Both the position numbers and the translations under genes were made by a program. From Candidatus Latescibacterota bacterium (GTDB taxonomy: Bacteria; Latescibacterota; UBA2968; UBA8231): 64,000 nt of DNA. Shown here piece by piece: positions 1,685 to 16,608 of the stretch; the stretch's first letter is position 1, and every line of letters begins with the position of its first letter. Below the pieces are notes generated by a model that was given only the letters and a program-made list of their open reading frames with translations, was not told where the DNA came from and searched no databases. The DNA lies in NCBI GenBank assembly GCA_965215195.1, contig CBDCDC010000001.1, forward strand, positions 64,001-128,000, read 5' to 3'.

Positions 1685-2047
1685 ATGCAGCAACCCCCCG
1701 AAGTCAACTCCGATCCCGTGCAAGTGGAGTTGTCCAAGCGGTTAGACAGCTTTGAGCGTCGCCTTGACCGCATGGAGACCAACCAGCGCGAGGACAACGC
1801 CCAATTGCAGCAGGACAACGCCCAACTGCGGCAGGATATGCGGCAGGACAACGCCCAATTGCGGCAGGACAATGTCCAACTACGGCAGGATATGCAGCAG
1901 GACAACGCTCAATTGCGGCAAGATATGCGGCAGGACAACGCCGAGATTCACCGCCGCTTAGACGTGCTCAACGGCCGCATCTATTGGGTTATTGGAACGC
2001 AAATCGCGCTTATGGGCCTTTTGTTCGCCGCCCTGAAGCTGACCTAA
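1685..2047 (+). CDS. Small coiled-coil repeat protein with C-terminal transmembrane anchor (DUF1640/Bdr-like architecture)
   Basis: AAGGAG RBS before ATG 1685. RQDNAQL/RQDM repeats are followed by the hydrophobic tail IYWVIGTQIALMGLLFAALKLT. Confidence 0.75.
   Translation: MQQPPEVNSDPVQVELSKRLDSFERRLDRMETNQREDNAQLQQDNAQLRQDMRQDNAQLRQDNVQLRQDMQQDNAQLRQDMRQDNAEIHRRLDVLNGRIYWVIGTQIALMGLLFAALKLT
1787..1948 (+). repeat. In-frame tandem repeat of 21-nt (CGGCAGGACAACGCCCAATTG) and 12-nt (CGGCAGGATATG) units
   Basis: Read directly: six DN-containing heptads interspersed with three RQDM tetrads. Confidence 0.9.
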
Positions 2048-2084
2048 GTAAGTACGGCTCCCACCAGCGCGGCGGTTTGCGGAA

Positions 2085-4259
2085 TCAATCGCTCGGCCGT
2101 GTCGGTTCTAGCGGGACGGCTTGCCCTGCTTCCAACACCGCGCCGACCTCGCCGCACAGGCGCTCTTTGAGGGTGGTGTAACGCTGGGCGACCTTGTCGT
2201 TTGCAATGGCCAGCTTGAGGGCCTTGGGGGTGCCGACGATGACGATCATTTGCTTGGCGCGGGTAATGGCCGTGTAGAGTAGGTTGCGCTGGAGCATCAC
2301 GTAGTGCTGAGTCGTCAGCGGCAGCACCACCACGGGAAATTCCGACCCCTGAGAGCGGTGGATGCTGATGGCGTAGGCGAGGGTTAGCTGGTCGAGATCG
2401 ACTTGATCGTATTCCAAGGTGTAGTCAAAGCGCACGTAGAGCACCTGCTTTTCCGCGTCGAGCCGCTCAATTGTGCCGATGTCGCCGTTAAAAACGCCCT
2501 TGTCGTAGTTGTTTTTGACCTGCATGACCTTGTCGCCCACCCGGAACTCGGCCCCGCGATGGCGGAGTGCTTGGCCGTGCGGGTTGAGGCGCTGTTGCAG
2601 CCGCTGGTTGAGGTTGAGTGCGCCGGTCTCGCCGCGGTACATGGGCGAAAGCACTTGGATGTCGGCGCGTCGATCCCACTCTCGATAGCTGGGCAGCCGC
2701 GTGGCGCACAACTCCTCCACTAGCTCGACCACTCGCTCCGGGTCCCCCTCGCGGATAAAGTAGAAATCCGCGGCCGCATGGTTTTCGACAACGGGCATTT
2801 CGCCGCTGTTGATGCGGTGCGCGTTGCGGATGATGTGGCTTTTTTGAGCTTGGCGAAAAATCTGCGTCAGGCGCACCACCGGCACTTGGGCAGAGTCGAT
2901 GATGTCGCGGAGCACGTTGCCCGGCCCCACCGAGGGCAACTGGTCGATGTCACCGACTAGCACCAGCCGAGCGCGATCGGGCAGGGCGCGCAGGAGCGCG
3001 TTCATCAGCACCACGTCGATCATGGAAGCCTCATCGACGATCAGTGCGTCGAGTTCGAGGCGGTCGTCATAGCCCTTTTTGAATTGCCGCTCGCCCGGCT
3101 GAAATCCGAGCAGCCGATGAATGGTCTTGGCCTCGCGGCCGCTGGCCTCGCTCAGCCGCTTGGCGGCGCGGCCCGTAGGCGAGCACAGCGCGACCTTGAG
3201 GCCGCCTTCCTCCAACAGGCGCAAGATGCGCCGCGTAACGGTCGTCTTGCCGGTGCCCGGTCCGCCGGTCAGCACTAGCACCTTGCTCGTAGCGACCAAC
3301 TCCACGGCCTGTTCTTGCGCCGGGGCCAATTCCAGCCCGTCTTCAGCTTCTGCGGGCACGGCCAATTCTGCGGCCGATGCTTGCAAAAGCCGCTTTAGCG
3401 ACGATGCGGCACCCACTTCGGAGCGATGGAGCGGCGGTAAGTAGTAGTGCAGGTCTTCGGTGACTACGCCATCGCTGGCGCGCAGGGCCTCCAATGCCGG
3501 CGGCAGCAGCTCGGCGTTGATGTCCAAAATTTCGACCGCCCGCTCCATCATTTCGACCGCCGGCAGGTACACGTGCCCCTCGTTGGCCGCTTCGGAGAGC
3601 AGATAGCGGATGCCAGCCTGCACACGCTCGGGTGCATCGTGGCTCAGGCCCAAGCGCTGGGCAATGCGGTCGGCGATGCGGAAGCCGATCCCATCCACAT
3701 CGCGCTCTAGGCGATAGGGATCGCTGCGCACCTTTTGGATGGCCTCTTGGCCGTAGGTCTTGAAAATTTTTACTGCGTAGCCAGTGGTAATCCCGTGCGA
3801 CTGCAAAAAGACCATCACGTCCTTGATTTGCCGCTGCTCGTCCCAAGCCTCGGCAATGAGCTCGACCTTCTTCTTGCCCAGCTTGGGTACTTCCGCTAGC
3901 CGTTGGGGATCCGCGTCGATGACGTCGAGCGTTTCCTCGCCAAAGTGCTCGACGATGCGCTTGGCCGACCTCGGCCCGATGCCTTTGATCAAACCAGATC
4001 CGAGGTACTTTTGCATGCCTTCGAGGGTCGAGGGATAAACGGCCTTATAGCGCTCCACTTTGAGCTGTTTGCCGTATTTGGGATGATTGGTCCACACGCC
4101 TTCTACTTCGATGCTCTCGCCCTCTTGGATGGAGGCAATCGCCCCCACAATTGCGATTCGCTCCCGCTGGCCCTCTACTACTAAGCGCGCAATGGTATAG
4201 CCGTTTTCCGGGTTGTGGTAGGTCAGGCGATCTATAAAGCCTTTATACGATTGGTTCAT
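2085..4259 (-). CDS. recD2: ATP-dependent RecD-like DNA helicase (RecD2)
   Basis: N-terminal OB region (HPKYGKQL), HhH (YLGSGLIKGIGP), Walker A TGGPGTGKT, SPTGRAAKRL, DEASM, GDIDQLPSVGPG and AYAISIHRSQGSEF. Start MNQSY at 4259 overlaps the upstream stop (ATGA). Confidence 0.95.
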   Translation of the reverse strand: MNQSYKGFIDRLTYHNPENGYTIARLVVEGQRERIAIVGAIASIQEGESIEVEGVWTNHPKYGKQLKVERYKAVYPSTLEGMQKYLGSGLIKGIGPRSAKRIVEHFGEETLDVIDADPQRLAEVPKLGKKKVELIAEAWDEQRQIKDVMVFLQSHGITTGYAVKIFKTYGQEAIQKVRSDPYRLERDVDGIGFRIADRIAQRLGLSHDAPERVQAGIRYLLSEAANEGHVYLPAVEMMERAVEILDINAELLPPALEALRASDGVVTEDLHYYLPPLHRSEVGAASSLKRLLQASAAELAVPAEAEDGLELAPAQEQAVELVATSKVLVLTGGPGTGKTTVTRRILRLLEEGGLKVALCSPTGRAAKRLSEASGREAKTIHRLLGFQPGERQFKKGYDDRLELDALIVDEASMIDVVLMNALLRALPDRARLVLVGDIDQLPSVGPGNVLRDIIDSAQVPVVRLTQIFRQAQKSHIIRNAHRINSGEMPVVENHAAADFYFIREGDPERVVELVEELCATRLPSYREWDRRADIQVLSPMYRGETGALNLNQRLQQRLNPHGQALRHRGAEFRVGDKVMQVKNNYDKGVFNGDIGTIERLDAEKQVLYVRFDYTLEYDQVDLDQLTLAYAISIHRSQGSEFPVVVLPLTTQHYVMLQRNLLYTAITRAKQMIVIVGTPKALKLAIANDKVAQRYTTLKERLCGEVGAVLEAGQAVPLEPTRPSD

Positions 4260-4879
4260 AACAATCCAGATGCCCGGTACAATAACGCCGTACTCCCCGC
4301 GCCCAACGCGCCACCCGCGCCGAGCTGAAGCGGAGTATGGGCCCGCAAGTAAAGCCGCGCCCAAGCGACGGCTGGCCAACTCAGCAAGAAGGGCCACGCT
4401 GCGCTGCCGACGCTGATCAACAATATGTAGGTCGCTCCCCCGACGCCAGCCGCGTGAATGCTGATCTTATAAGAGCGATTGATCCACCAGACCAACAGCG
4501 TATTGACGACGCAAGACGCGGCCGCGACCAGCATCAGGGGCGGAGCACCGATCCCGTAGAGGGCCGCACTCCCCAAAGCGTAGCAAAGAGCACCCAGCAA
4601 GAGCAGGGTAGCGCGCTTGTTGCGGTCGTCTGTATAGGCTTGGTCGAGATAGCCCGAGCGCACCAAGTGCCAGAGTAGCAACCCGGGTACCACAGAGAAG
4701 GTGCCGATCGCCACTGCGCCGGCGAGCCAGTCGCCCAGTACGCGTGCTTGGACGCCGAAGACCAAGAGTGCCAACAGCGCGGGATTGAGCAAGTGCGAGA
4801 GGAAGTGTGCGGCTTGGTGCGGATGCAGACGAAAACAGGGACGAGCTAATTGCTCGCCCCTGTTTGTTTTTTTTGCCAT
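4256..4879 (-). CDS. PAP2-like multi-pass membrane protein
   Basis: About 6 hydrophobic segments. KISIHAAG and WARLYLRAHT resemble PAP2 C2/C3 motifs. Start uncertain. Confidence 0.6.
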   Translation of the reverse strand: MAKKTNRGEQLARPCFRLHPHQAAHFLSHLLNPALLALLVFGVQARVLGDWLAGAVAIGTFSVVPGLLLWHLVRSGYLDQAYTDDRNKRATLLLLGALCYALGSAALYGIGAPPLMLVAAASCVVNTLLVWWINRSYKISIHAAGVGGATYILLISVGSAAWPFLLSWPAVAWARLYLRAHTPLQLGAGGALGAGSTALLYRASGLL

Positions 4880-5292
4880 TTTTTTCCGCTGGCCGCGCCG
4901 CGATCGGGCGGCCTCTCGTCGTCTAGCACAAAGCCGATGAAGCGCTTCTGCCCAAGGGTCTTCAAGTATTGGAGCAGGGAGACCTCGGCCTCCTTGCGGT
5001 TGAGCTGGTACTTTTCGCTGAGCAATTCGATCATCTTGCCGACCGAGTTGCGGCCGTTGCACATCCGCCAGACCTCGCTGCCGACCTCGTCGAGGGTGAT
5101 TTTGCGCTGCTTGGGGATGTAGAAAAACTTGGACAGCAGCCGCACCTTCCAGGTCTCTTGGCGCTTTATTAAGACCCGCACCTCGTCGTTGTCGCTGAGC
5201 TCCCAGCTCAGGGACTCATTGCGCGTTGGCCGCGACGCCAACATGGCGGCCCGGCTCAGCTTGGGTGCCTTGTTTTTTGATAAAATGCCCAT
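4846..5292 (-). CDS. PqqD family / RiPP recognition element (RRE) protein
   Basis: ITLDEVGSEVWRMCNGRNSVGKMIELLSEKY...LLQYLKTLGQKRFI matches the PqqD pattern (L..vg..iW...dG..tv..i...l...y). Confidence 0.8.
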   Translation of the reverse strand: MGILSKNKAPKLSRAAMLASRPTRNESLSWELSDNDEVRVLIKRQETWKVRLLSKFFYIPKQRKITLDEVGSEVWRMCNGRNSVGKMIELLSEKYQLNRKEAEVSLLQYLKTLGQKRFIGFVLDDERPPDRGAASGKKWQKKQTGASN

Positions 5293-6208
5293 TTACTACC
5301 TTGGAGACTAAGTTGTCTTCTGCGTCTTTCTTGCGGTAGAGGTGCTCGACGATTGCGATCTTGTCGAGGTCGGTATCGCACCAGACGCGCCCCCGCAGAT
5401 ATAGGCGCGGCCTCGGGTTCATAAAGGGCAGGGGACGCAGCAGCTGACGCCAGCGGCTGCGCGGCCGCCCCTCAACGCGAATGCCCTCGTGCTCTTGCAC
5501 GGCTTCTGGAGCAATGTCCACCACGAAGTCGCGCAATTGCTTCTTAAAAAAAACCGGATACCAGTCTTGAACATACGCGTCTTTGAGCATGATCCGGGCC
5601 ATGCTCAACCGATGCACCCTTAGAACCTGTTTGCCGCGGGAAAACTCTAGCTGGATGTGGCCCGATTTGAGGGAATGGCTTTGCAGCTTGAGGTCGCTGG
5701 GCGCGAAAAACTGCAAGCCGTACACGCTCCACAGATGAGCGTCCTCAGCTTCTTGGTCGACGAGCGAGCTGAACACGGCCTCGGCTTGCTCGGGCAAAAA
5801 CTCGTCTAGCTTGGCCAGCACTCTCAGGAGCACTACCCGCCCGGACTCCAAGGCGAGCGCTAGGTTGTACGCGCGAAAGTCGGCTTCCCAGATGAAGACC
5901 TCGTATTCCCGGCCTTCGAGGAATTTCTTGTTTTTGAGGAATCGGGCGCGGCGCTGGACCTCAAAGGGGGCATCGACCTTTTGGGCCTTCTTTTGCAGGT
6001 TGGCCAAGTAGCGATCTACCAGCTCGGTCAGGCGCAGGGCCTCGCCGCGGCCTTTGAGACGCCGCCATTCGATCTCGGCGCGCACGATTTCGGCGTCGTC
6101 GAGGCGGGCATAGCCCTTTTCAAAGTCTCCGTCAACCCGGCCGAGATTCCAGTCGTCGGGCACGGACAGCCTCAGTCCTTGCCACGCGAAATCCACCCAA
6201 TCGCTCAT
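5216..6208 (-). CDS. Hypothetical cytoplasmic protein with two internal repeats (possible PsbP/DcrB-like fold)
   Basis: 330-aa ORF starting 2 nt after the upstream stop. Repeats FAWQGLRLSVPDDWNL and WSVYGLQFFAPSDLKL. No signal peptide or TM segment. Confidence 0.65.
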   Translation of the reverse strand: MSDWVDFAWQGLRLSVPDDWNLGRVDGDFEKGYARLDDAEIVRAEIEWRRLKGRGEALRLTELVDRYLANLQKKAQKVDAPFEVQRRARFLKNKKFLEGREYEVFIWEADFRAYNLALALESGRVVLLRVLAKLDEFLPEQAEAVFSSLVDQEAEDAHLWSVYGLQFFAPSDLKLQSHSLKSGHIQLEFSRGKQVLRVHRLSMARIMLKDAYVQDWYPVFFKKQLRDFVVDIAPEAVQEHEGIRVEGRPRSRWRQLLRPLPFMNPRPRLYLRGRVWCDTDLDKIAIVEHLYRKKDAEDNLVSKVVNGHFIKKQGTQAEPGRHVGVAANAQ

Positions 6209-6209
6209 G

Positions 6210-8630
6210 CTAGAAGATCAACACGGAGACCGATTTCTGGATCAGGGCAATCCCCACCGATGCCATCCCCATCAGTGCCATGCCGCAGGAGAAGCCTACC
6301 GCCAGAATCGGAGCAAACTGCCGCCATTCCTGCCGCCCGTACTTGTTCCAAAAGTAGTAGCGAGCCAAGAGCGCACCGACGATCTCGGTGACGACCAAGT
6401 GTGGCAGAGTCGTCAGTGAGCGCACGAAACCAAAGATCAGCAGAATCGGCAGCCCGAGGATAGACAGCAGAATGAAACTCACCAGCCCAAAGCCGGCACC
6501 AAAGGCGATGACCTCTAGTTTCAGCGCCCTAAAGAGCCAAGGCACGTCGGTGGAGTGCTGGATCCAAGAGCTGGTAAAGAGCGGATCGGTATCGACCTCA
6601 AAGTAGAAGGACCATCCGGCCGGCACGGCACGCTCGACCTGCACTTCGAGGGTCGGGCGGGGATCGCGGATGATTGTGTCCATCGCTGGCCCCAGCGGCA
6701 CAATCGCCGGCAGGCCCTCGACAACTTCCTCTTCGGCTAGCTGCTCGTCGCGCAAGTAGCGCTCGGCGACGATGTCGGGTGCCCCCTGCTCAAAGTACGA
6801 GTAGAAAACTTGGGTCGGCATCCACTGCCCGACTTGGCCGCGCTTGCCGTTGGAGTCCAGCCACTCCTGATCCACTAGCCGCACCCGCCAGTACCACCAC
6901 TCGTTTTCGATTAGATTAGCCGGGGTCCATCCCGCCCGGTCGTTGTCTATGGCCAGTTCGCTGCGCATGGTGCCGGTGATAAACAGGCATTGCTGGTAGG
7001 CGCGCAGCCGCCACATTAGCTGGGCATAGGGGTAGGAGGCCGACGGAATGGGTGCCAGTTTCCAAATGTAGGAGCCGTAGAGAAAACTGGTAAAGAGTAC
7101 GATGGGCACCATGAAAATCTCGGCGCGGATGATGCTGGTAAACTGGGTTCCAGTCAATTCGATCTCGCGGAACTTCTGGGTCTGGGCACCGTAGTTGCCC
7201 AAGGGAAACGGAATGAACCAGATGTCAACGCCGCGATACCCAGAGAAGATAATCGTGGCCTCGCGCACAAAGGGGATCTCCACCGTCTGCCCCACCATCC
7301 CGACTAGGCGGGCGTTGACGAAGGACTGAAAGGGCGTGAATATGAAACCAAAAAAGAGAAAAAACCATATAAATTGGGCAATGCCCGGCAGCAGCCAGGC
7401 GGCGATGCCGATCAGGCCGGCCGTGGCCAAGACGTATAGGGCCAGCGCTACCCAGATGGGGAAATCGCCGCGGCCCACGGGGGTAGCGAAGCTGCGCTTG
7501 GGACTGCCATCATCTCCTGCGTTGGCCCTAGCACTGCGCACGCTCTGAAATACCTGATAGATGCCGATGACGGCGATGGCGATGGTGGTGCCGATGCCAA
7601 AGCTCATCCAGAAATCGACATTGTTGACGAAGAAGGTCTCGACCGTGCCCATGCCTTGCTGCCACAAATTCAGGTACGGCTCCTCGCGCCACGAAGGCGT
7701 CCAAGTATAGAGCAGCGGATTGGCAATGGAGGCGACGACCACGCCGAGAAAGGTGCCGACCACGCCCCAAAACGGCACCACTAGCCCGGTAAAGATCGGC
7801 CCCAAGTGCGCGGTAAATCCCAGCGGAGTGGCCGGGATGAAGTTACCGGTGACTTGCGTGAAGTCGACAAAGGGAATGGGTATGAGTTGGATCGGCTCAG
7901 TCAGCAGTGCGCCGGTAATCGCCGGCAAGGCCACGTAGATCGTGCCAAAGACCAAGCCGATCATCGCCCCGGCCGAGAATACTCGCCAGCGCCAAGTCTC
8001 AAGCCCTTGGGTGGTCTCGGCTAGGGCCGTAGCACCTTGGGCGTTTACGGGCGCGAAGGGAAAGGGCAGGCGCTCGTAGTCGGAGCTGAGCCGGAAGAGC
8101 GCGTACGACATGGTGAACCAGTTGATGCGCGAGATGATCATCCCCAAGACTAGGAGTACGATCGGCATCGCCCAATCCGAGTGTAGGAAGGTCCGCTCGA
8201 TGATGGCGGAGGAATTGAGCGGCGGTGCCACCCAAGTGGGAATCAGCTTGGTGATGCCGAACTGCTTGGCCGCTGGGGATTGCACCAAGTACTGGTTGTA
8301 GAGCAAACCCTCAAAGGCACCAGTCTCCGCGGCAATCAGGGAGGAGGCCACGTAGAACAGCACATAGACTTCTTGGCGCCGGAGGGAGGAAAAGGAGCGC
8401 TTGGTGATTTCGGCGAAGAGGATGATGGTCACCCACTCGGCCGCTGCCCCCAAAGAGCCACCGATCATCAGGCTCAAGTACATGTTGCCCGGCACCATGA
8501 TAAAGGCGACGAAGAATACGCCGAGGATGGCCTTGATCGTAAAGCCGTTCTCGAAGCGGTCCGGGACCTGCATTAGATCCCGATATTCTTCGATCTCTTG
8601 GTTCGGGTTTCTATTTTTTCTTCCGAGCAC
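6210..8630 (-). CDS. OPT/YSL-like oligopeptide transporter-type polytopic membrane protein with a soluble insert
   Basis: Many TM helices. N-terminal GFTIKAILG...EWVTIILFAEI...LRRQEVYVL and YERLPFPFAPV resemble OPT-superfamily patterns. GGGAGG RBS before the GTG start. Confidence 0.7.
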   Translation of the reverse strand: MLGRKNRNPNQEIEEYRDLMQVPDRFENGFTIKAILGVFFVAFIMVPGNMYLSLMIGGSLGAAAEWVTIILFAEITKRSFSSLRRQEVYVLFYVASSLIAAETGAFEGLLYNQYLVQSPAAKQFGITKLIPTWVAPPLNSSAIIERTFLHSDWAMPIVLLVLGMIISRINWFTMSYALFRLSSDYERLPFPFAPVNAQGATALAETTQGLETWRWRVFSAGAMIGLVFGTIYVALPAITGALLTEPIQLIPIPFVDFTQVTGNFIPATPLGFTAHLGPIFTGLVVPFWGVVGTFLGVVVASIANPLLYTWTPSWREEPYLNLWQQGMGTVETFFVNNVDFWMSFGIGTTIAIAVIGIYQVFQSVRSARANAGDDGSPKRSFATPVGRGDFPIWVALALYVLATAGLIGIAAWLLPGIAQFIWFFLFFGFIFTPFQSFVNARLVGMVGQTVEIPFVREATIIFSGYRGVDIWFIPFPLGNYGAQTQKFREIELTGTQFTSIIRAEIFMVPIVLFTSFLYGSYIWKLAPIPSASYPYAQLMWRLRAYQQCLFITGTMRSELAIDNDRAGWTPANLIENEWWYWRVRLVDQEWLDSNGKRGQVGQWMPTQVFYSYFEQGAPDIVAERYLRDEQLAEEEVVEGLPAIVPLGPAMDTIIRDPRPTLEVQVERAVPAGWSFYFEVDTDPLFTSSWIQHSTDVPWLFRALKLEVIAFGAGFGLVSFILLSILGLPILLIFGFVRSLTTLPHLVVTEIVGALLARYYFWNKYGRQEWRQFAPILAVGFSCGMALMGMASVGIALIQKSVSVLIF

Positions 8631-8643
8631 TCGCTATCCTCCC

Positions 8644-11600
8644 TTACGCCGACACTTCGCTGCGCAGCCCTTGCAGAATTTCCGCGCCCTGTTGGCGGTA
8701 GCCTTCTTTGGCCTCGGCATCCACCGTGCGCCAGATGAGGAACTGCTTGCGGATGACGTTCATAAAGCGCTGGTTGACCCTTCGCCACGAGGCGTCCTCG
8801 CCGCTGAGTCGCTTGATTTGCAGGCCGACCGCGTAAATGTTGTGCTCGGCCTCTGGCATGGCCCGCACGGTGACGTGTTGGCTGACTCCGAGGTCAAAGG
8901 GAGCCAGCCAAATGTTCATGTCGATCAGATATCCCTCGCCGTTGGGCGTCTCCTCGCGTTTCAAGCTGGCACCGTCGGTGTAGAAAGTGCCGATGGACTC
9001 CTCGCTGTAGGAGTCGAAATAGCCGATGAGGAATACGCTCAAGCCCAAGACCTCGTGGCCGCTGACCGTAAAGGGGAACTCGAAATCCCACTGGTCGCCA
9101 TCGGGCGGCGGCAGCTTCCACTTGCGGGTCACGTCGGGCACGGCCATCTGCGATGCCTTGCGCGCTGGATAAATCGTCGAGAGCATGACCACGGCCATTA
9201 CCAGCATACAGGAGAGCACCGCGGCCACCGAGGAGTAGTTGAGGGTGAAGCCGCCCAGCAGGTCGAACTCAATGAGCACCTTGGCGATCACTTGGCCGCT
9301 GAGGTAACCGGCTACTACTCCGAGCACCGAGTACACGCAACTCTCGGCGATAAAGAGCCAAGAGATATGGCCGGGGGCTAAGCCCACTGAAGAGTAGATG
9401 CCGATTTCGCGGAAGCGCTCGTACACGCTGCCCATCATGGTGTTGAGCACGATCAGTGAGGCGATCAGCATGGGGATGAACAAGTTGCTCATGCCGGAAA
9501 AAGAGGTCATCCCCAGCGATGAATAGATCGACACCTTGATGTATTCGTCTCCGGGCTCCTTGACTCCGGCGAAGAGCGTCACCGCGAGGCGGGAGAGGAA
9601 CTCCTCGACCTCGCCGCGCACATCGCTGCCTGCTGGGAAGCGCACCGCTACCGACTGTAGCGGGTTGCCGCTGCCGACGTTGCGCAGCGTGTGGTAGGGC
9701 GTGATCAGGATGTTGGCCGGCTCTAGATGGACAAAGGGCTTGATGACGACCTTGGCGTCCTCCAAGCCCTGCTTCTCGCGCTTTTCTTCCTCGGCTATTT
9801 CCTGCACGGCTTGGCCGCCGGTGACGGCAAAGTCGGCCGGCGTCAGGATTTCGTCGTCGAGATCTTTGAGGTCCTTCATCCGCTTGGAGTCGAGGACGCC
9901 AACGACCGTGAACAAGTCGCCGAAGATCCGCACCTGCGCCCGGCCGACATCGGCGAGGTCGAGGTCGAGATGGGCCTCCTTGACCATGTCGATGGGCAGG
10001 ATGCAGACCTTGTCCTCGCCCGGCTCAAACCACCGCCCGGCAACTAGGGCTTGGTCCAGCCCGGTGACCTCGGTTTCATCCGGGGTCAATCCGAGGACGC
10101 CGAGCGCGTTATGGGCCTTGTCGCCGTGTTTTATTTTGATATGCGCCTTGGCTTTGTTGCTGTACCAACTGCGCGGCGCGACCGCGGCGCGACCGCCGAA
10201 GTTGCTGCGGGCGTATTCGAGCACGGAATCCTCCATCGGATTCCACGCCTTGCTGCGGATTAGGATGCCTTCGTAGAGGCCCTCGTTGTCGCGGCTGATT
10301 TGGTTGAATCGCAAGCCGGTGCGGATGGAGGTGAAAGAGAGGACCGTAAAGGTCAGCAGCAAGAGCGTGGTAAAGGTGAGGACCGTGCGCGTCTTGCGCC
10401 GCTTCATGTTGGAAATCCCGAGCTGGAAGGCCGTCAGCGAGGCCGAAGAGCGGCTGACGTCCGTGTCGTGAATCACGGCCACCTCGGTGCGCAGCTTCTT
10501 CATCTGCTCGTTGAAGCGGCCGGAAATGATCGACATTACGAGGACGGCCAGCGCGATGATGATGAAGGCCAATAGGATGACGAAGGGATTGGATAGCTGG
10601 AAGGCCGGATGCACTATCCACAGCACGATCCAGATCGCCAAGAAGACCCCGACGAATCCGATGATCTGATTGCGGATCGTGGCGGCCGTAAAAAGGAGCC
10701 GCTCGGTAAAAAAGGCGCAGGGAAGGACGAGGGCCATGAAGAAGATAATGCCCTGAATGACGTCGTTTTGGGTGGATTTGACGTCTGGATAGGCACGCGA
10801 CTCCAGCCCGAAGGCCGCGCGCGTGTGGCGCACGAAATCGCCCCAGCGCTGCTCGGTGCCAGCCGCTGCGGCTTGGTCTAGCTCGGTCTCGGCCCGGTAG
10901 TGGAGGTCGTTGAGGCGCTGGTTTTCAATGGCAAAGCTCCGCAACTCGCGCATCCGCGACTCGTCGAGATTCCACATGTCTTGGGCGGCTTGGAAGGTCG
11001 TGCGGGCAAAAGAGGTGCCGGGGCGGATCTCAAAGCCCTCGCCTTCGGCCTTGTCTTTGTTGGTGACGCTAGTGGCGTTGAGCAGCAGCGAGCGAAAGCC
11101 GAGCAGGCCCGCGCCAAAGCCCATCTTTATGCGCGAGCCGGGCCGCGCAAAGAGCACCCCAACCGGCTCGTTTTGGGCCGAGGGGCCTTCGCCGATGGTG
11201 TAACCGTACTCCACGGGTGCGCTGTTCGTCTCGTCGAAAACCTGCACGTTGGACAGCTTGGTGAGATAGCGCGGATCGACGATGTCGAAGAAGTTGTAGG
11301 GTACGCAGGGGAAGAGGATGACCATCCACTGCTTGTCGCGCCAGTCCATGGAGACCTTCATCGGGTAGCTCTCGTCGCCTTGCACGCCGCGGTCTGGGGC
11401 GTAGGTGATGCGGCCGGTGATCGGGTCCATGTAGTAGCCCTCGATCTGCACGTTGTTGACCCGCACCCGATTTACGTAAAAAGCCCCCCGATCATCGACG
11501 ACTTCGTAATACTCGCCGCGCACGCCTTTGTACGACTTTTTCTTGCCGTTGCGCACGACGGCCACTGCGTCGGCACGCGGCAGGTCGGGGATGATGCTGC

Positions 11601-13470
11601 GGCGCGGAAAGACCATGGTGCGGCCGCGCAGGGAGCGCAGATTGTCGCGCAGGCGCATCTTGAAGTCCGGGAAAAGCTCTGGGTCTGCAAAGGCCATCTC
11701 GAACATGCCGGAGAGCACCCGGATCTGTTTGGCGAGATTGGCGTGGTTGACGCGCTCGCCTTGGTCTAAGGGCGTATCGACGAGGAAGCGCGCGTCGTTG
11801 ACGGTGACAAAGGCCAACGCCGGCGTACCGGTCGCCAACACCAATTCGCTGTTGACCGATATTTCGCCCGGTACAAAAGTCTGCCAGCTCATCCCGCCTT
11901 CGGGGCTGATGCCATTGACCAGCACGTCGCGCTGTTGGTAGCCCAGTTCGCGGCTGATCTTGCGCGCATAAGCCATGAAGTTCTTGCCGAAGGGCGCGAA
12001 GTAGCGCTTGTAGTAAAAGCTGGTATTGCTATTCCACACCCCGAGCTCGTCGGTCTGCGAAGAAAGGTCGAGACTGATGAAGAGCTTGACCGCGAGCGAA
12101 TCGACTTTGGGATCGACCCAAGTTTTGTAGAGCGCGAGGCGCAAGTCGTCGTCCGAGCGCACCTGATCAACCAGTTCGCGGCGGTTTTTGAATCGCTCGC
12201 CGGCGAGGTGCAGGTCGCCTTCTTCTCGGCTCAGCAGCCCCTTGAGGCCCTCTACGGCTCTCTTCCACAAGCCCTGTGAACTGCTCGCTGCGCCTTCTTC
12301 TTGGCTCAGCAGCCCTTCGGCGAGCGCGGCGTCGGCAATGTCTGCGGCCAAGTCGGTGCGCCCTTCGGCAACGCTCCGCACGAGAGCTTCCTTGCCGGTG
12401 AACTCCTCCTCGCCGATGGCGTAGTGGATGCCGTCTTGGGCGATCATGTTCCGTGCGAGTGCGGCATCGACGACCCGCCTCACCAGCATGTGTTCGATAA
12501 AGGGATCCTCTTTGCGCAAATAGCGCTGGATGAAATCATCGACCCCGCGCAAGCCTAAGTGGTGGGCCGAAGTAGCGAGAAAGACGACCGTGCGCGCTGG
12601 CGGGTGCGCACGAAAATAGCGCGCCAGCTCCAACAGTGCAGTAATGCTGGAGGCCTGCTCGGCACCCGGGGTGAGGGCCGGCACGACCGACATGGCGTCG
12701 TAGTACGCTTCCAGCACGATCACGTCCTCTTTCATCAAGGGATCGTATCCGGGGATCGCGCCGAGGATATTCCAAGCGGGACGCCGCTCCCAATCCATGC
12801 GGTACTCCAAGTGCAGCGTCTGCTCGTCCCCTGCGGCCAATTGGCGGCGCAGGCGCTGGCCGGCTTGGCGATTGATCCAGAACCTCGGCAGGTCGAGCGG
12901 CATGGTGAGGAACTTCTTTTCGCCTTCCAAGTACACGGTGGAGTCCGGCTCGATAAAGACGATGGCCTGCGCCCCCAGATAGGCGGCATTGAGCCAAGCG
13001 TCGCCCGAATTGAAGTCCATCAGGGCGACGGCCCCTTCGACTTGTTGGCCATCCATGTCCGCGTATTCGCCCGCGCCGGCGTCTATCAAGCGCCCGGTCA
13101 CCCCGCCTTCGGGCAGCGTCGAAGTTTTGACTAGATTGGGCCAGAGGCCGTGGATTGGCACTTGTTCGCCGCTTTCGACGACCCGCAGGAATCCGCCCTT
13201 ATCGACGGGAATCGAGACGTCGTATTCGTGGACTGCGACGTCGTCGAGGCCGATTGCGCGGAAGTGCTCCTGCACGATCTGGGCCGCTTGGTCGGCCCCC
13301 GGATAGCCGGCGACCCTAGATCCCAAACCGGCAAAAGTGTCCATCGTCTGCTGTACGCGCTCGACCGGGGCCGTGCGCGCCAACTCGGCAAAATCGACCT
13401 CGGCTTGGGCCAGTGCCGCGCCGGCCAAAATCCAGCCGAGGGCCATCCACTTCACCGCGAACTTAGGCAT
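8644..13470 (-). CDS. Large fusion: signal peptide, degenerate M28 peptidase/PA domain, two FtsX-type permease TM blocks with a MacB-like periplasmic domain
   Basis: Signal peptide MPKFAVKW...ALAQA. M28-like segment NILGAIPG...VIVLEAYYDA...PGAEQ...ALLELARYF...RTVVFL. FtsX motifs NMKRRKTRTVLT and SVYERFREIGIYSSVGLAP...IYPARKAS. Confidence 0.85.
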   Translation of the reverse strand: MPKFAVKWMALGWILAGAALAQAEVDFAELARTAPVERVQQTMDTFAGLGSRVAGYPGADQAAQIVQEHFRAIGLDDVAVHEYDVSIPVDKGGFLRVVESGEQVPIHGLWPNLVKTSTLPEGGVTGRLIDAGAGEYADMDGQQVEGAVALMDFNSGDAWLNAAYLGAQAIVFIEPDSTVYLEGEKKFLTMPLDLPRFWINRQAGQRLRRQLAAGDEQTLHLEYRMDWERRPAWNILGAIPGYDPLMKEDVIVLEAYYDAMSVVPALTPGAEQASSITALLELARYFRAHPPARTVVFLATSAHHLGLRGVDDFIQRYLRKEDPFIEHMLVRRVVDAALARNMIAQDGIHYAIGEEEFTGKEALVRSVAEGRTDLAADIADAALAEGLLSQEEGAASSSQGLWKRAVEGLKGLLSREEGDLHLAGERFKNRRELVDQVRSDDDLRLALYKTWVDPKVDSLAVKLFISLDLSSQTDELGVWNSNTSFYYKRYFAPFGKNFMAYARKISRELGYQQRDVLVNGISPEGGMSWQTFVPGEISVNSELVLATGTPALAFVTVNDARFLVDTPLDQGERVNHANLAKQIRVLSGMFEMAFADPELFPDFKMRLRDNLRSLRGRTMVFPRRSIIPDLPRADAVAVVRNGKKKSYKGVRGEYYEVVDDRGAFYVNRVRVNNVQIEGYYMDPITGRITYAPDRGVQGDESYPMKVSMDWRDKQWMVILFPCVPYNFFDIVDPRYLTKLSNVQVFDETNSAPVEYGYTIGEGPSAQNEPVGVLFARPGSRIKMGFGAGLLGFRSLLLNATSVTNKDKAEGEGFEIRPGTSFARTTFQAAQDMWNLDESRMRELRSFAIENQRLNDLHYRAETELDQAAAAGTEQRWGDFVRHTRAAFGLESRAYPDVKSTQNDVIQGIIFFMALVLPCAFFTERLLFTAATIRNQIIGFVGVFLAIWIVLWIVHPAFQLSNPFVILLAFIIIALAVLVMSIISGRFNEQMKKLRTEVAVIHDTDVSRSSASLTAFQLGISNMKRRKTRTVLTFTTLLLLTFTVLSFTSIRTGLRFNQISRDNEGLYEGILIRSKAWNPMEDSVLEYARSNFGGRAAVAPRSWYSNKAKAHIKIKHGDKAHNALGVLGLTPDETEVTGLDQALVAGRWFEPGEDKVCILPIDMVKEAHLDLDLADVGRAQVRIFGDLFTVVGVLDSKRMKDLKDLDDEILTPADFAVTGGQAVQEIAEEEKREKQGLEDAKVVIKPFVHLEPANILITPYHTLRNVGSGNPLQSVAVRFPAGSDVRGEVEEFLSRLAVTLFAGVKEPGDEYIKVSIYSSLGMTSFSGMSNLFIPMLIASLIVLNTMMGSVYERFREIGIYSSVGLAPGHISWLFIAESCVYSVLGVVAGYLSGQVIAKVLIEFDLLGGFTLNYSSVAAVLSCMLVMAVVMLSTIYPARKASQMAVPDVTRKWKLPPPDGDQWDFEFPFTVSGHEVLGLSVFLIGYFDSYSEESIGTFYTDGASLKREETPNGEGYLIDMNIWLAPFDLGVSQHVTVRAMPEAEHNIYAVGLQIKRLSGEDASWRRVNQRFMNVIRKQFLIWRTVDAEAKEGYRQQGAEILQGLRSEVSA

Positions 13471-13487
13471 AGTTGTAAGTGCCTTTC

Positions 13488-15458
13488 TCAGATCCAGAAG
13501 ACCACATTGTCGGTCATGCCCGTAAAAAAATCGATAATCAACCAGAGCCCGGCGATGAAAAACTGGCCTACGATCAGGCCCAAAAAGAAGGGACGCGCCC
13601 GGCGAAAAAGGCTGGGACCGCCGTATTTCATTGCCATTAACTTTAAGAGCCAAGCGAGGGCAATGCTAAACCACAACTGGTCCATCAGCCATACGGCACC
13701 AATGGGGTATCCAATGGGATGCAGAGGCCACCACAAGAGCCGCTGGCGCACCCACATGAGCAGGGCCATGATGCCCCCGCCGACAAAAGTGTGAACCCAG
13801 CCATCTATGTTCGGCTTGGTGGGCGCGCTTAACTTGGTGGTAATATAATCAAAAGGGGCGCGAGTTCCACCACCAAAAAACCACCCGTTGAGGTTGATGC
13901 CACCGTATTCGTAGGCGAGGTACAAAATTGCTGCGACCGAGCCGACAATGCTGACGAAAATCGCCAGCAGCATGTACCAAAAAAGCGGGCGCAGCCGCGG
14001 CCCCAGTTCTTCGCCCAACTTGAGGCCGTGTGCGCAGGAAGCCATGACAAACGTGCGGATGTCCGCCGCCCACACGTAAGTGTAGGCGAGGCCGACCATG
14101 CCCGCCGGGCCGAGCACCGAAGAGCCTACGGCCGAGACCAAGACCGACGAAGAAATCATCGGCCCGACCGCCGCTGCCACGCCTCCCTCTACTACCACTC
14201 GGGTCAAGCCGACAAAAATAAGGATGGCCAGCATCAGGGTCAAAAAGGCCGCCCACAGCGGCAAGCCGGACTGCCACAGCCAGATGGTCATCACCGCGAC
14301 TCCGGCGAGCCAAGTTAAGACCGCCGCCCGATAGGAGAGCATCTCGCCGCGGTCGTCAATGCGGTCGTCGCCCACGAGGGCCTTGCGCAACACGTCGCGC
14401 AGGTGTTCGCGGCCGACCCACAGGCCGAAAAACACTAAGACGATCATCGCCCCCTGTCCTTGATGGGCGAGGATCGGCTCGCTAGGAGCACCGTAAATGC
14501 CCAGCTTTTCGGTGCTACCGACCCCTAAAACCCCCAGCCCTCCTCGAATCAGCTTGGCGATGGTGTTGAAAAACCACAGGCTGAAGGCAATGTCGAGATT
14601 GATTAGATAGGCGAACCCCACCATGGGAAAGCTCAGGCGGAAGATCAGGCTGACGGTGTTGCGCAGGATCGGCACAGAGGAGACGAGCTGGATGGCGGGG
14701 ATGAAGTTGAAGTACGCGTGTAGGGCGTTGAGACTGCTGACGAGCGCGGGCAGGGCAAAGCCGATCCACATGATCGGGTTTTTGAAGAAAGGCCCTAGGG
14801 CCTCTCCGCGGCTCCCGCTCTGCACCATGGCCAAGGGCACTTGCACCAGCGGGTAAACCAGCCGCTCCCGCTCCACCCACTGGCGGCGCAGAATGACCAT
14901 AGACGAGATCATAACCAAGTACAGGGCCACGATCAGCACGGCCCAATAGCACAGCGGGCCGCCCCAGACGGCCCAAGGCACCCCAGCGGTGCGCGGTGCC
15001 CCTTCGTAAAACCACTTGATCGACTCGGGATCCTGCGGCGCGATCCAGTCGGGAAGGTGCGGCAGGATGTGCAAGGCCCACTCGTTTTCCGGGGTGGCGT
15101 AGTACTGGGCACCGGTGATGATCGTCAGCCAGTACTCGCTGAGGCCCATCGTGGGGATGGCCGAAGCCGTGAGCATCATAATGTACGCGACGATGAGCTC
15201 GCAGCGCCCGAGGGCCACAGGAGTGGCGAAGCGAGTCAGCAAGGCGTTGAACGAGCCAGTCAGCACGAAGAAGAGGAACAGGGCACCTGCCGCGCTGAAA
15301 TCAATCGACATGTAGGAGCCGCGGATGACCATATTGCCGTAAGGTGCCCCCAAGGCAATGCACAGCGACCCCAAGGTCCCCGCCGTCAGCGCTTTGGCGC
15401 TGAAGACCGGCTCGGCTCGTACTGGGCCCTGAAAGGCAGACTCTTGCGGCAAATCCAT
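13488..15458 (-). CDS. DUF6785/DUF6784-type polytopic membrane protein (putative peptide transporter)
   Basis: ELIVAYIM, ILRRQWVERERLVYPLVQVP, WWPLHPIGY and KYGGPSLFRRARPFFLGLIVG are characteristic of this family as recalled. Confidence 0.75.
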   Translation of the reverse strand: MDLPQESAFQGPVRAEPVFSAKALTAGTLGSLCIALGAPYGNMVIRGSYMSIDFSAAGALFLFFVLTGSFNALLTRFATPVALGRCELIVAYIMMLTASAIPTMGLSEYWLTIITGAQYYATPENEWALHILPHLPDWIAPQDPESIKWFYEGAPRTAGVPWAVWGGPLCYWAVLIVALYLVMISSMVILRRQWVERERLVYPLVQVPLAMVQSGSRGEALGPFFKNPIMWIGFALPALVSSLNALHAYFNFIPAIQLVSSVPILRNTVSLIFRLSFPMVGFAYLINLDIAFSLWFFNTIAKLIRGGLGVLGVGSTEKLGIYGAPSEPILAHQGQGAMIVLVFFGLWVGREHLRDVLRKALVGDDRIDDRGEMLSYRAAVLTWLAGVAVMTIWLWQSGLPLWAAFLTLMLAILIFVGLTRVVVEGGVAAAVGPMISSSVLVSAVGSSVLGPAGMVGLAYTYVWAADIRTFVMASCAHGLKLGEELGPRLRPLFWYMLLAIFVSIVGSVAAILYLAYEYGGINLNGWFFGGGTRAPFDYITTKLSAPTKPNIDGWVHTFVGGGIMALLMWVRQRLLWWPLHPIGYPIGAVWLMDQLWFSIALAWLLKLMAMKYGGPSLFRRARPFFLGLIVGQFFIAGLWLIIDFFTGMTDNVVFWI

Positions 15459-15501
15459 TGAGACGATCCTTACCTGAGTGGGCGTTTTCTGGCGTCGCCT
15501 T

Positions 15502-15524
15502 GGGAGCGCGGGCTTCTGGCCCGC
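15502..15524 (+). repeat. REP-like short palindrome GGGAGCGCGGGC-N5-GCCCGC
   Basis: Intergenic. Related copies at 25707-25729 and 58492-58520. Confidence 0.55.
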
Positions 15525-15580
15525 ACGAGGGCGGGACGGGCGTGTACTTATAGGAAAGGTCTATTATAATAGTACTAGCC

Positions 15581-16093
15581 CTAGTCCAACCAGCCTATTT
15601 TCTCTAGTTGTTCCAAGGTCCACCAAGCCAACAGGCCAATCGCCCCCCCGCTCACCAAAGCGCTGAACAAGGCCAGCGGCAAAAGCGCGAACAGACCGCT
15701 GTGGCCGATATAGCCAGCGGCGAGAACGAGCTGGCTGAGCTGGTGCGCCAACGCGCCCCAGATGCTCAGGCCCACGACGCTGAAAAGCCGCGCTCCCATG
15801 CGGCGGACCGCAACCATGACCAGCCAGCTCGCCAAGCCAGCCCCGCCGCCTATGACAAAGGCCGGACCGGCAAATCCCCCGCTGAGCAAGCCGCCGACTA
15901 CGAGCTTGATGGCACTAACGGCCAACGCCGGGCCGCCGCCAAAGCTCACCAGCGCGACCAAAACCGGCAGATTGCCGAGCCCCAACTTCATCCAAGGCAA
16001 GGGTTTGGGCACCAGCGATTCAAAGGCAAAGAGCACGATGGCCGCACTGGCCATAAGCCCCAAACGGGCCACGTCTCTAGGGCGCGCAAACAT
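15581..16093 (-). CDS. Gx transporter family membrane protein (heptaprenyl diphosphate synthase component I-like)
   Basis: FESLVPKPLPWMKLGLGNL and SVVGLSIWGALAHQLSQL. TGATG overlap with the upstream gene. Confidence 0.85.
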   Translation of the reverse strand: MFARPRDVARLGLMASAAIVLFAFESLVPKPLPWMKLGLGNLPVLVALVSFGGGPALAVSAIKLVVGGLLSGGFAGPAFVIGGGAGLASWLVMVAVRRMGARLFSVVGLSIWGALAHQLSQLVLAAGYIGHSGLFALLPLALFSALVSGGAIGLLAWWTLEQLEKIGWLD

Positions 16094-16482
16094 CAGCGAA
16101 TCATCGCGTCTAGGGGCGCGGCACCAGCGATCCTCAGCACTAGGCCGTTGGGTACGCACGCGGCCACGTCGCCCGCTCGCTGCATCCAGCCTTGCCGCAT
16201 GCAGATCTTGTGGACGCAGGGCGCGGAAAGTACGCGCACGCCCTTAGGGCCGATTTCGATCTCGCTCGCTCCCAAAGGCCCTACAACCGGCAAGACTCCG
16301 TAGTTGGAGAGGGCATGTGTGGCGGGCGCGGCCCCGGCCAACTCGACGATGAGCACGCCGCCGGCTTCGGCCGTATAGCGGCCGTAGAGCACCAGCCCGA
16401 GCGCGCTCAAGCTCACGACGAGCGCGAGGATTTTATCCGCTCGCGTCAGCGCCGGTGCGTTTTCGGTATTTAGCCGCCACAT
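16093..16482 (-). CDS. NusG domain II-containing (DUF1312) membrane-anchored protein
   Basis: N-terminal TM helix, then VRVLSAPCVHKICMRQGW...AACVPNGLVLRI. Confidence 0.85.
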   Translation of the reverse strand: MWRLNTENAPALTRADKILALVVSLSALGLVLYGRYTAEAGGVLIVELAGAAPATHALSNYGVLPVVGPLGASEIEIGPKGVRVLSAPCVHKICMRQGWMQRAGDVAACVPNGLVLRIAGAAPLDAMIR

Positions 16483-16608
16483 CCTGCTCCCTTTTCTCTT
16501 TTCATTTTAATTTAAGTTCTACCAGACGTGCAAACGAGCGGGGAACTTCTGCTTGTATGTACTTGTTTTTTTTCTATATTGACGGGCAAATAGAGAACGA
16601 AGGACCCC

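Follow-up and report, generated by a model that had tools for sequence, protein, structure and literature searches.

The window analysed here is a 64,000-nucleotide (nt) stretch of DNA from a Candidatus Latescibacterota bacterium (positions 64,001 to 128,000 of contig CBDCDC010000001.1, assembly GCA_965215195.1). Between positions 4256 and 15458 it carries six genes, here named A to F, which a preliminary description made from the sequence had put forward as one operon for an undescribed envelope machine. A computational analysis of these genes and their relatives makes it very probable that the products of A to E, together with a class of engine proteins encoded in trans in this genome, belong to one functional multi-subunit system. 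The genes of the cluster and the gene that follows it are:

13488-15458, minus strand: gene A, polytopic protein with DUF6785 and DUF6784, 656 amino acids (aa)
8644-13470, minus strand: gene B, giant permease of the MacB/FtsX class, about 1608 aa
6210-8630, minus strand: gene C, polytopic protein without a Pfam model, 806 aa
5216-6208, minus strand: gene D, predicted tandem PsbP/Mog1-like protein, 330 aa
4846-5292, minus strand: gene E, PqqD/RRE-like protein, 148 aa
4256-4879, minus strand: gene F, PAP2-like membrane protein with a match below the cut-off, about 207 aa
2085-4397, downstream of F: recD2, with a clear Pfam match

For B the start was taken to be the ATG opening MPKFAV; the open reading frame (ORF) itself begins at 13653. 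As had been described, all six genes lie on the minus strand with gaps of at most 17 nt or with overlaps, and the order of transcription is A-B-C-D-E-F, followed by recD2. The coordinates give gaps of 17 nt between A and B, 13 nt between B and C, and 1 nt between C and D, and overlaps of 77 nt between D and E and about 34 nt between E and F. F also overlaps recD2, by 4 nt if recD2 starts at an internal ATG.

Conservation and expression of the cluster

Synteny was analysed for the best 80 of 573 matches to B in Latescibacterota species-representative genomes, 69 of which had both flanks. A or C directly adjoined B in 62 of these 69 loci, and both genes did so in 32; of the seven loci with neither gene adjacent, five had A within 8 kb. 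Of 76 Latescibacterota loci, 56 had C next to B, and in two other phyla, Armatimonadota and Poribacteria, all 12 loci had B immediately upstream of C. B itself was found in all 41 relatives searched (41/41). This arrangement of A, B and C is far beyond chance, and the co-occurrence of the gene neighbourhoods in three phyla agrees with the conserved multi-subunit unit proposed in the preliminary description.

Both flanks were available for 33 loci of the window-cluster orthogroup. C, D and E were each present in 31 of these; 27 had F, 26 had recD2 and 19 had A. In two loci, L088 and L103, none of C, D and E directly followed B, and in L103 C resumed 6.4 kb downstream. A was absent from 12 of 35 orthogroup loci, in which B directly followed a gene of the Hpre_diP_synt_I family. 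A is an optional, dispensable member of the unit: its earlier inclusion holds in so far as DUF6785 genes often adjoin B, and fails for the 12 loci without it. In a relative of the same genus (L079/L068) the ortholog of A was broken into four to five overlapping ORF fragments and B to E were intact; this A is either a decaying gene or the product of assembly errors, and fits the dispensability of A. Because A is missing in some loci and F and recD2 are separable in relatives, the constant part of the window-cluster orthogroup is B-C-D-E. Across all lineages, the core of the system is B plus the OPT-fold protein C, often accompanied by the distant paralog A, to which D and E are added in the window orthogroup.

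The last two genes fared differently. In several relatives E and F were 1.5-1.8 kb apart, and in L098 a flagellin gene on the opposite strand occupied this space. The match of F to Pfam PAP2 (E 0.0095, 16.1-16.5 bits) was below the cut-off of 27.2 bits, and among the loci scanned F accompanied the system only within the window-cluster orthogroup. F probably lies outside the unit and travels with recD2. On the grounds of synteny we rejected F and recD2 as members of the operon, and the PAP2 membership and onward coupling to recD2 that had been described turned out to be an accident of this lineage.

A scan of positions 2000-16700 for promoters and terminators gave counts close to those expected from shuffled sequence, and none was located between the genes. 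Metatranscriptome contigs from four studies, 90-95% alike to the window, covered positions of about 4870-15160 and bridged the E/D, D/C, C/B and B/A junctions; the contig pieces spanned 5381-12348, 4871-7187, 8071-10515, and 13107-15164. These contigs are consistent with expression of the cluster in close relatives. Outside 4870-15160 the RNA depth was lower in some runs, which permits no inference, as the runs were picked via that stretch and depth was obtained per contig.

Upstream of A, the minus strand carries a gene of the Hpre_diP_synt_I family and a NusG_II gene (Pfam; 15581-16482), and beyond these lies a divergent relA/spoT gene (16609-18825, plus strand). These genes are syntenic with the cluster across its whole orthogroup, and no functional tie to it is evident. 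On the other side, a putative gene on the plus strand (ORF 1025-2047) encodes a run of QDNAQLRQDM-like repeats near its end, followed by a hydrophobic tail, and overlaps another listed ORF.

Predicted folds and domains of proteins A to E

According to its domain matches, B is predicted to be an ATP-binding cassette (ABC) permease of type VII and of the MacB/FtsX class, fused to a degenerate PA/M28-like ectodomain. Pfam FtsX (PF02687) matched with E 3.1e-15 and 56.7 bits (cut-off 25.5), MacB_PCD (PF12704) with E 1.8e-8 and 35.4 bits (cut-off 27) at residues 1029-1215, and Peptidase_M28 (PF04389) with E 1.9e-8 and 34.7 bits (cut-off 21.3), the last over profile positions 1-79 of 193 only. In profile searches of the PDB the N-terminal region of B matched the PA-M28 aminopeptidase 2ek8 (E 1.8e-16), YwaD (1.4e-12), and Nicalin (4.5e-6), all three matches spanning the PA domain and the first half of the M28 region, and the C-terminal part matched MacB (5.9e-12), LolC, LolF and YtrF. 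A hydropathy scan placed transmembrane segments at residues 904, 936, 964, 1031, 1324, 1369, and 1415. The resulting layout comprises a signal-like N terminus, a stretch of about 880 aa lying outside the membrane, three transmembrane segments, a cytoplasmic linker, the MacB unit and a tail. The MacB unit consists of one transmembrane segment, a periplasmic core domain and three further transmembrane segments, the core being flanked by the hydrophobic segments at 1031 and 1324, and after it the protein ends in a cytoplasmic tail of about 165 aa that is conserved.

When aligned to 2ek8, the M28 catalytic positions HHD, DD and EE read yYD, eq and H(H/F) in B; the numbering of the M28 ligands is the one we take to be standard. 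The last two zinc ligands were unalignable, so that the comparison refers to the alignable positions, at which B has not kept the zinc ligands and catalytic Glu of M28 peptidases (H-x-D, a bridging D, and E-E). Among 12 members of the B family, Y257, D258 and H303 were invariant and E271 was present in at least 90%, and a His at the first position occurred only in two paralogs. The earlier description of a permease of about 1600 aa with a peptidase-fold ectodomain is thus supported by the Pfam and PDB profile matches, with changed catalytic positions.

This genome encodes six B paralogs with divergent ectodomains, all located within 8 kb of a copy of A, five of them also with C. The paralogous clusters share no further gene besides A and C. 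Within the genus, the open frames of one group of B paralogs (e.g., G001:C1:5209165-5212494) measure 2094-2148 aa, some 500 aa more than those of the other groups. One paralogous C-A-B cluster adjoins a gene for an RVT_1 reverse transcriptase (568 aa, L009:1868-3574, minus strand), which is accompanied by an HTH/M78 (IrrE-like) gene. Genes with the look of toxin-antitoxin systems (HicB-like and PIN-domain) were seen in or beside paralogous A/B clusters (L008:12659-13153 and 18039-18476; L013:5051-5461; L032:3280-3720).

A matched DUF6785 with E 3.4e-123 and DUF6784 with E 1.1e-30 in Pfam. An AlphaFold2 model of A, calculated from an alignment of 43 paralogs of the same genome, had a pLDDT of 92.2, and in a Foldseek search of the PDB it matched barley YS1 (7wst_A) with E 9.5e-9, a probability of 1.0 and TM-scores of 0.62/0.66 over about 690 aligned columns. 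A second YS1 structure (7wsr_A) matched with E 2.6e-8, and the next, unrelated match had E 0.019. As barley YS1 is the only significant structural match in the PDB, the modelled A is assigned the OPT/Yellow-Stripe (YSL) fold. The likeness concerns the overall fold (TM-scores of 0.62-0.67 for 7wst and 7wsr) at an identity of 12-13%: Pfam OPT (PF03169) matched neither A nor C even at E ≤ 10, and phmmer searches of A and C against PDB sequences gave no match.

C had no Pfam match at all at E ≤ 10. Alignment of the A and C families with hhalign gave a probability of 93.9% and E 1.6e-7 over the N-terminal 220 columns, which include the paired motifs ERLVYPLVQV of A and ERLPFPFAPV of C, both fitting ERL.[YF]P...V. 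At a more global setting (low mact) the value was 92% over residues 3-648 of A and 14-800 of C. Because the alignment runs over the whole length, C is related to A from end to end, though divergent, and carries an additional insert of some 150-200 aa; its OPT/YSL fold would follow from this homology, the fold match itself being obtained with A alone. The two distantly related OPT-like proteins of the preliminary description are in keeping with the hhalign values of 92-94%, the shared motif and the fold match of A to YS1. A search for C homologs returned 3864 sequences at E ≤ 1e-5, the best 120 of which were all unnamed, and an Atlas lookup returned only clusters of its own kind, automatically named "Peptide transporter family protein". 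One C paralog bears a PDZ domain.

The genome of 6.13 Mb (two contigs) contains 47 DUF6785 matches, of which 44 are full-length, as well as five C paralogs and single copies of D, E and F. The number of DUF6785 copies per genome reaches about 50, and at least 10 copies were counted in most families of the phylum and in three Armatimonadota-type genomes. The neighbours of the remaining 38 copies of A were of two types. One comprises secreted FlgD_ig/CHU_C-tailed proteins and FG-GAP/ASPIC, F5/8-type-C and TPR proteins; the other comprises GFO/IDH/MocA, aldo-keto reductase, GH116, lactonase, ThuA-GSDH-CBM6, enolase-superfamily, PfkB and sulfatase genes. In such catabolic loci a stand-alone A was often the sole transporter gene among the neighbours scanned. 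One type of locus that recurs among the A loci of this genome (L011-L046, outside the window) combines A with FlgD_ig/CHU_C-tailed proteins of about 650 aa, F5/8-type-C proteins of about 840 aa, FG-GAP/UnbV_ASPIC proteins and membrane proteins of about 850 aa that bear a spermine-synthase-like domain.

D and E are predicted to be cytoplasmic, as neither showed a transmembrane segment in the hydropathy scan. D had no Pfam match, and its profile gave only chance-level matches in the PDB. An AlphaFold2 model of D from 110 sequences (pLDDT 91.0) showed two PsbP/Mog1-like domains in tandem, which agrees with the two-repeat protein noted before; in Foldseek it matched the two-domain immunity protein Tli4/TplEi of the type VI secretion system (1.4e-5), PsbP (1v2b, 6e-5, target-normalized TM-score 0.65), and Mog1 (3e-3). 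The D family numbers 1475 representatives of 50%-identity clusters at E ≤ 1e-3 and extends to other phyla; the clusters that the Atlas gave for D were unnamed and likewise came from phyla other than this one. The wider family has a near-invariant CxxC...C...CH motif, probably a zinc site, which is lacking in D of the window and its closest relatives. In Armatimonadota, D is located directly after FtsW/RodA and before a TPR protein gene (L149, L153, L154).

E matched Pfam PqqD (PF05402) with E 6.9e-11 and 42.8 bits (cut-off 23.4), as expected for the stand-alone PqqD-like protein described earlier. Its scores against the NCBIfam PqqD-type equivalogs were all far below their cut-offs, and E has a conserved N-terminal extension and an insert. 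The overlap of D and E and the N-terminal extension of E were kept in every ortholog examined. A complex prediction for D and E gave a score of 0.23 against a mark of 0.32, which says nothing on binding either way. In NCBIfam, A, C, D and F were without a model, and the matches beyond these were weak ones of the ADOP/MacB/FtsX and PqqD types.

The preliminary description had excluded a RiPP cluster (ribosomally synthesized and post-translationally modified peptides) for lack of a maturase or precursor, and we likewise rejected this candidate: no radical SAM, YcaO or lasso enzyme and no precursor was seen among the genes of the clusters scanned, in which small ORFs were not searched systematically. 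Nor was a HlyD/MacA-type adaptor or TolC-type gene present among the neighbours scanned.

An ATPase and a small FtsX protein as the probable engine

In this genome no ABC_tran gene lies within 9.9 kb of any of the six copies of B, unlike the ordinary FtsX-type permeases of the genome, which have an adjacent ATPase gene. A hidden Markov model scan found a co-oriented ATPase gene in 10 of 85 Latescibacterota loci and none within the fetched flanks of the other 75. Where an ATPase is linked to the system, the following arrangements were observed, smallFtsX being a gene for a small FtsX-type permease:

A-B-C-D-E-smallFtsX-ATPase: L170, L171, L172; other Latescibacterota families with a single B
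A-B-C-D-E-smallFtsX-ATPase, with A cut by the contig end: L174; other Latescibacterota families with a single B
B-C-D-E-smallFtsX-ATPase: L173; other Latescibacterota families with a single B
D-E-smallFtsX-ATPase, at the contig start: L175; other Latescibacterota families with a single B
B-C-(D)-(E)-smallFtsX-ATPase: L141, L144, L147; unclassified metagenome-assembled genomes (MAGs), with gaps of 0-4 nt in L147
smallFtsX-ATPase-B-C: all 6 loci from Armatimonadota/Zipacnadia MAGs in which the upstream flank was long enough
B-C-D-E-ATPase: L187, L188; Poribacteria MAGs

Loci L170 to L175 come from three other Latescibacterota families. Altogether, three phyla contributed at least 17 loci with the ATPase in cis (L141, L144, L147, L164/L177, L170-L175, L178, L181, L182, L184, L185, L187, L188). 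In L181, an Armatimonadota MAG, smallFtsX-ATPase-B-C is followed by two pilin-like genes and by FtsW/RodA, D and the TPR protein gene, this trio lying about 2.3 kb downstream of the B-C set. The two pilin-like genes are of the prepilin type (N_methyl plus DUF1559; L181:11150-13034) and lie between the B-C pair and FtsW/RodA-D-TPR. The engine of the system in these other lineages is a small FtsX protein without ectodomain plus a LolD/MacB-class ATPase, encoded in the same operon.

The preliminary description had missed an ABC ATPase and suggested a search for one encoded in trans. Contig 2 carries the one such pair of this genome (1364212-1365706), composed of a small FtsX protein of 233 aa (1364212-1364913) and an ATPase of 256 aa (1364936-1365706). 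Compared with the cis-linked pairs, the ATPase showed 72-74% and the small FtsX 44-54% identity. The ATPase belongs to the LolD/MacB/YbbA/FtsE class of NCBIfam, the closest models being LolD, MacB, DarD, YbbA and DevA. The small FtsX matched PF02687 with E 4.9e-18; where B has its periplasmic core domain, it shows no more than a loop of about 55 aa. By sequence relationship, the cognate ATPase of B is predicted to be this LolD/MacB-class protein, encoded outside the window. The absence of an ABC ATPase thus holds for the locus and not for the system, which has one in cis in other lineages and an orthologous pair in trans here.

The genomes in which cis linkage was verified (G043, G045, G050, G054, G069) had one match to B each, compared with six in this genome. 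Of 61 genomes sampled from the phylum, 47 contained B and 47 contained DUF6785; the small FtsX was detected in 44, with a single copy in each. In one family (f10) B, DUF6785 and the small FtsX were found in 0 of 13 genomes, and the few remaining misses concerned genomes that were 57-89% complete.

Proposed mechanism and alternative explanations

The origin of the ectodomain from an aminopeptidase fold, the OPT fold, the PqqD-like protein and the PDZ-bearing C paralog point to peptide-like ligands. We favour the uptake of varied substrates, because there are many cassettes with divergent ectodomains, a single engine, and catabolic contexts of free-standing A copies. A mechanism of capture and import, to which we assign a little less than an even chance, would work as follows. 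One ATPase/small-FtsX engine would serve several B-C/A cassettes, as the gene counts suggest. ATP hydrolysis would be relayed via the transmembrane helices of B and the small FtsX to the periplasmic part of B. This part, made up of the MacB core and the degenerate PA/M28 domain, would capture a peptide-like ligand and hand it to the OPT-fold permease, which would move it over the inner membrane, most likely inward. D and E would act at the cytoplasmic face, where E may bind an extended peptide as RRE domains do. The still bolder notion of a hybrid primary/secondary transporter, and hence of the first type VII ABC importer, with an interchangeable engine, capture by a dead peptidase, mechanical loading of the OPT-fold protein and a PqqD-like receiver, we regard as doubtful.

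As far as the accessible parts of the literature show, FtsEX-EnvC, LolCDE-LolA, MacAB-TolC and YbbAP-TesA are the well-characterised type VII ABC systems, each representing a different use of cytoplasmic ATP for work in the envelope. The system described here resembles them in the FtsX domain and MacB periplasmic core of B and in the LolD/MacB/YbbA/FtsE class of the ATPase; the two different FtsX-type permease genes recall LolC/LolE, and in having a hydrolase fold at the periplasm it is reminiscent of TesA and EnvC. Unlike the type VII ABC systems, it has in B a protein of about 1600 aa with three extra transmembrane segments, an additional ectodomain fused in (about 880 aa) and a conserved tail in the cytoplasm, it has a second permease, the small FtsX, without ectodomain, and it appears to combine several permease cassettes with one engine, with no adaptor or outer-membrane duct gene seen. 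An OPT-fold protein as constant partner and PsbP-like and PqqD-like cytoplasmic proteins likewise set it apart from the systems covered by those sources.

The individual components also differ from their nearest relatives. Unlike known OPT/YSL proteins, A belongs to DUF6785/DUF6784 in Pfam, occurs in 44 copies and is in part tied to an ABC permease, and C has a large insert and, in one paralog, a PDZ domain. As in Nicalin, the M28 catalytic positions are not kept in B, YwaD and 2ek8 being active relatives; unlike Nicalin and the aminopeptidases, B has its M28-like domain fused to an ABC permease, with 79 of the 193 Pfam positions aligned. E resembles the PqqD/RRE peptide chaperones in scoring above the Pfam PqqD cut-off and differs from those of RiPP systems in its additional N-terminal segment and insert and in the absence of a maturase or precursor among the genes seen. 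In group II energy-coupling factor transporters, one energy module is shared by many S-components. A similar organisation is suggested here by one engine pair per genome with up to six B-C/A cassettes, and by an engine in cis where there is a single cassette; the fold class and mechanism are unrelated, and engine sharing is read from gene counts.

Several observations weigh against capture and import by such an engine. None of the type VII ABC systems characterised so far is known to be an importer; their work is extraction, expulsion or activation. The contacts of B with C and with the small FtsX are inferred. The pair on contig 2 adjoins polysaccharide-synthesis genes (GT2, RmlD) and could have a separate job of its own. 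An orphan ATPase gene beside uvrB (contig 2: 3379883-3380635) shows 53-57% identity to the linked ATPases and is, by this measure, a weaker second engine candidate; the assignment of the engine partner is therefore not unique. As the sampled genomes are related to one another, one loss or a few evolutionary events could account for the agreement of the phyletic profiles. In the ectodomain an invariant His and conserved Glu and Asp remain, and as the replaced M28 positions are themselves conserved, a new site is possible, so that B may have a variant metal site and hence catalysis. Contigs from RNA libraries are no proof of one transcript, with DNA carry-over possible; of the co-transcription that was to be checked, the bridged junctions in close relatives stand and the single transcript is unproven. 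Finally, FtsW/RodA beside D in Armatimonadota and the weak LysM match on a B protein of Poribacteria direct attention to the cell wall, not to nutrients.

Such a cell-wall system of the FtsEX-EnvC type, in which the ectodomain of B, driven by the ATPase, would bind peptidoglycan or activate a peptidoglycan hydrolase, the OPT-fold partner would recycle the peptides set free, and D would form the link to SEDS (shape, elongation, division and sporulation) synthases, is in our judgement unlikely. It could account for the D homologs right after FtsW/RodA in L149, L153 and L154 and the same neighbourhood in L181, and for the LysM match of 28.9 bits in the Poribacteria B protein of 2358 aa; EnvC is a precedent for an inactive peptidase fold serving as activator. 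The inactive fold of EnvC is a LytM domain. Yet the linkage of FtsW and D comes from few related genomes and the LysM match is partial and limited to one lineage. A housekeeping division system would not usually comprise six B paralogs per genome with divergent ectodomains, the system as a whole went undetected in all 13 genomes of family f10, and A paralogs sit in catabolic loci. The same catabolic contexts argue against a machine for export or extraction like MacAB, LolCDE, DevCBA or YbbAP-TesA, which we consider improbable. Here E and D would bind cargo (peptide, lipid-linked or hydrophobic, from the cytoplasm or inner membrane), C would be the conduit, and B would expel the cargo or process it in the periplasm. 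This would be in line with the outward or periplasmic action of all type VII ABC systems characterised in the sources at hand, with the nearest models of the ATPase (LolD, MacB, DarD, YbbA, DevA), and with the many A paralogs that adjoin secreted FlgD_ig/CHU_C-tailed proteins. PqqD-like domains act as binders of precursor peptides in the export and maturation pathways of RiPPs, and PsbP-like DUF1795 proteins are chaperones of hydrophobic segments, both of which count for export. The clusters scanned, however, contained no precursor ORF, radical-SAM, YcaO or lasso enzyme, their scanned neighbours included no HlyD/MacA-type adaptor or TolC-type gene, and to our knowledge characterised members of the OPT family are importers, YS1 being an uptake carrier.

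The preliminary description implied a complex without an ABC motor; the FtsX-type protein might then be powered by a proton-driven OPT-like partner. The lack of ABC_tran within 9.9 kb of the six B copies and of an ATPase in the flanks of 75 of 85 Latescibacterota loci would fit this explanation, for which the ADOP family, named among the weak matches of B and comprising what we take to be orphan FtsX-type permeases, would provide a precedent. We nevertheless judge it very improbable, as at least 17 loci from three phyla have the ATPase and small permease in cis, this genome has one orthologous pair of its own, and the one-copy phyletic profile of the small FtsX matches that of B. It is hardly credible that the genes are mere neighbours with separate functions and no complex: A is dispensable and F and recD2 proved accidental, but the adjacency of B and C persists in three phyla while the surroundings rearrange, and the overlaps and tight spacing are conserved too. 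The earlier note had also mentioned assistance in membrane-protein biogenesis, and nothing found here bears on that role.

The preferred reading remains a system for the capture and import of peptide-like ligands. In the searchable literature we found nothing on DUF6785, DUF6784, PF20581 or PF20580, nor on FtsX, PqqD and OPT together, which agrees with the earlier statement that no characterised system has this composition. The system would represent a new set of partners for type VII ABC proteins, namely, an OPT-fold permease and PsbP-like and PqqD-like proteins, and is apparently modular, with one engine for many cassettes. It spans Latescibacterota, Armatimonadota and Poribacteria, all of which are known here from MAG records only. 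For several families without a function, i.e., DUF6785/DUF6784, the C family with its 3864 homologs and the D family with its 1475 representatives, it offers a first structural and contextual handle. If the DUF6785 proteins are uptake carriers, they may constitute a main route of nutrient uptake in these organisms.

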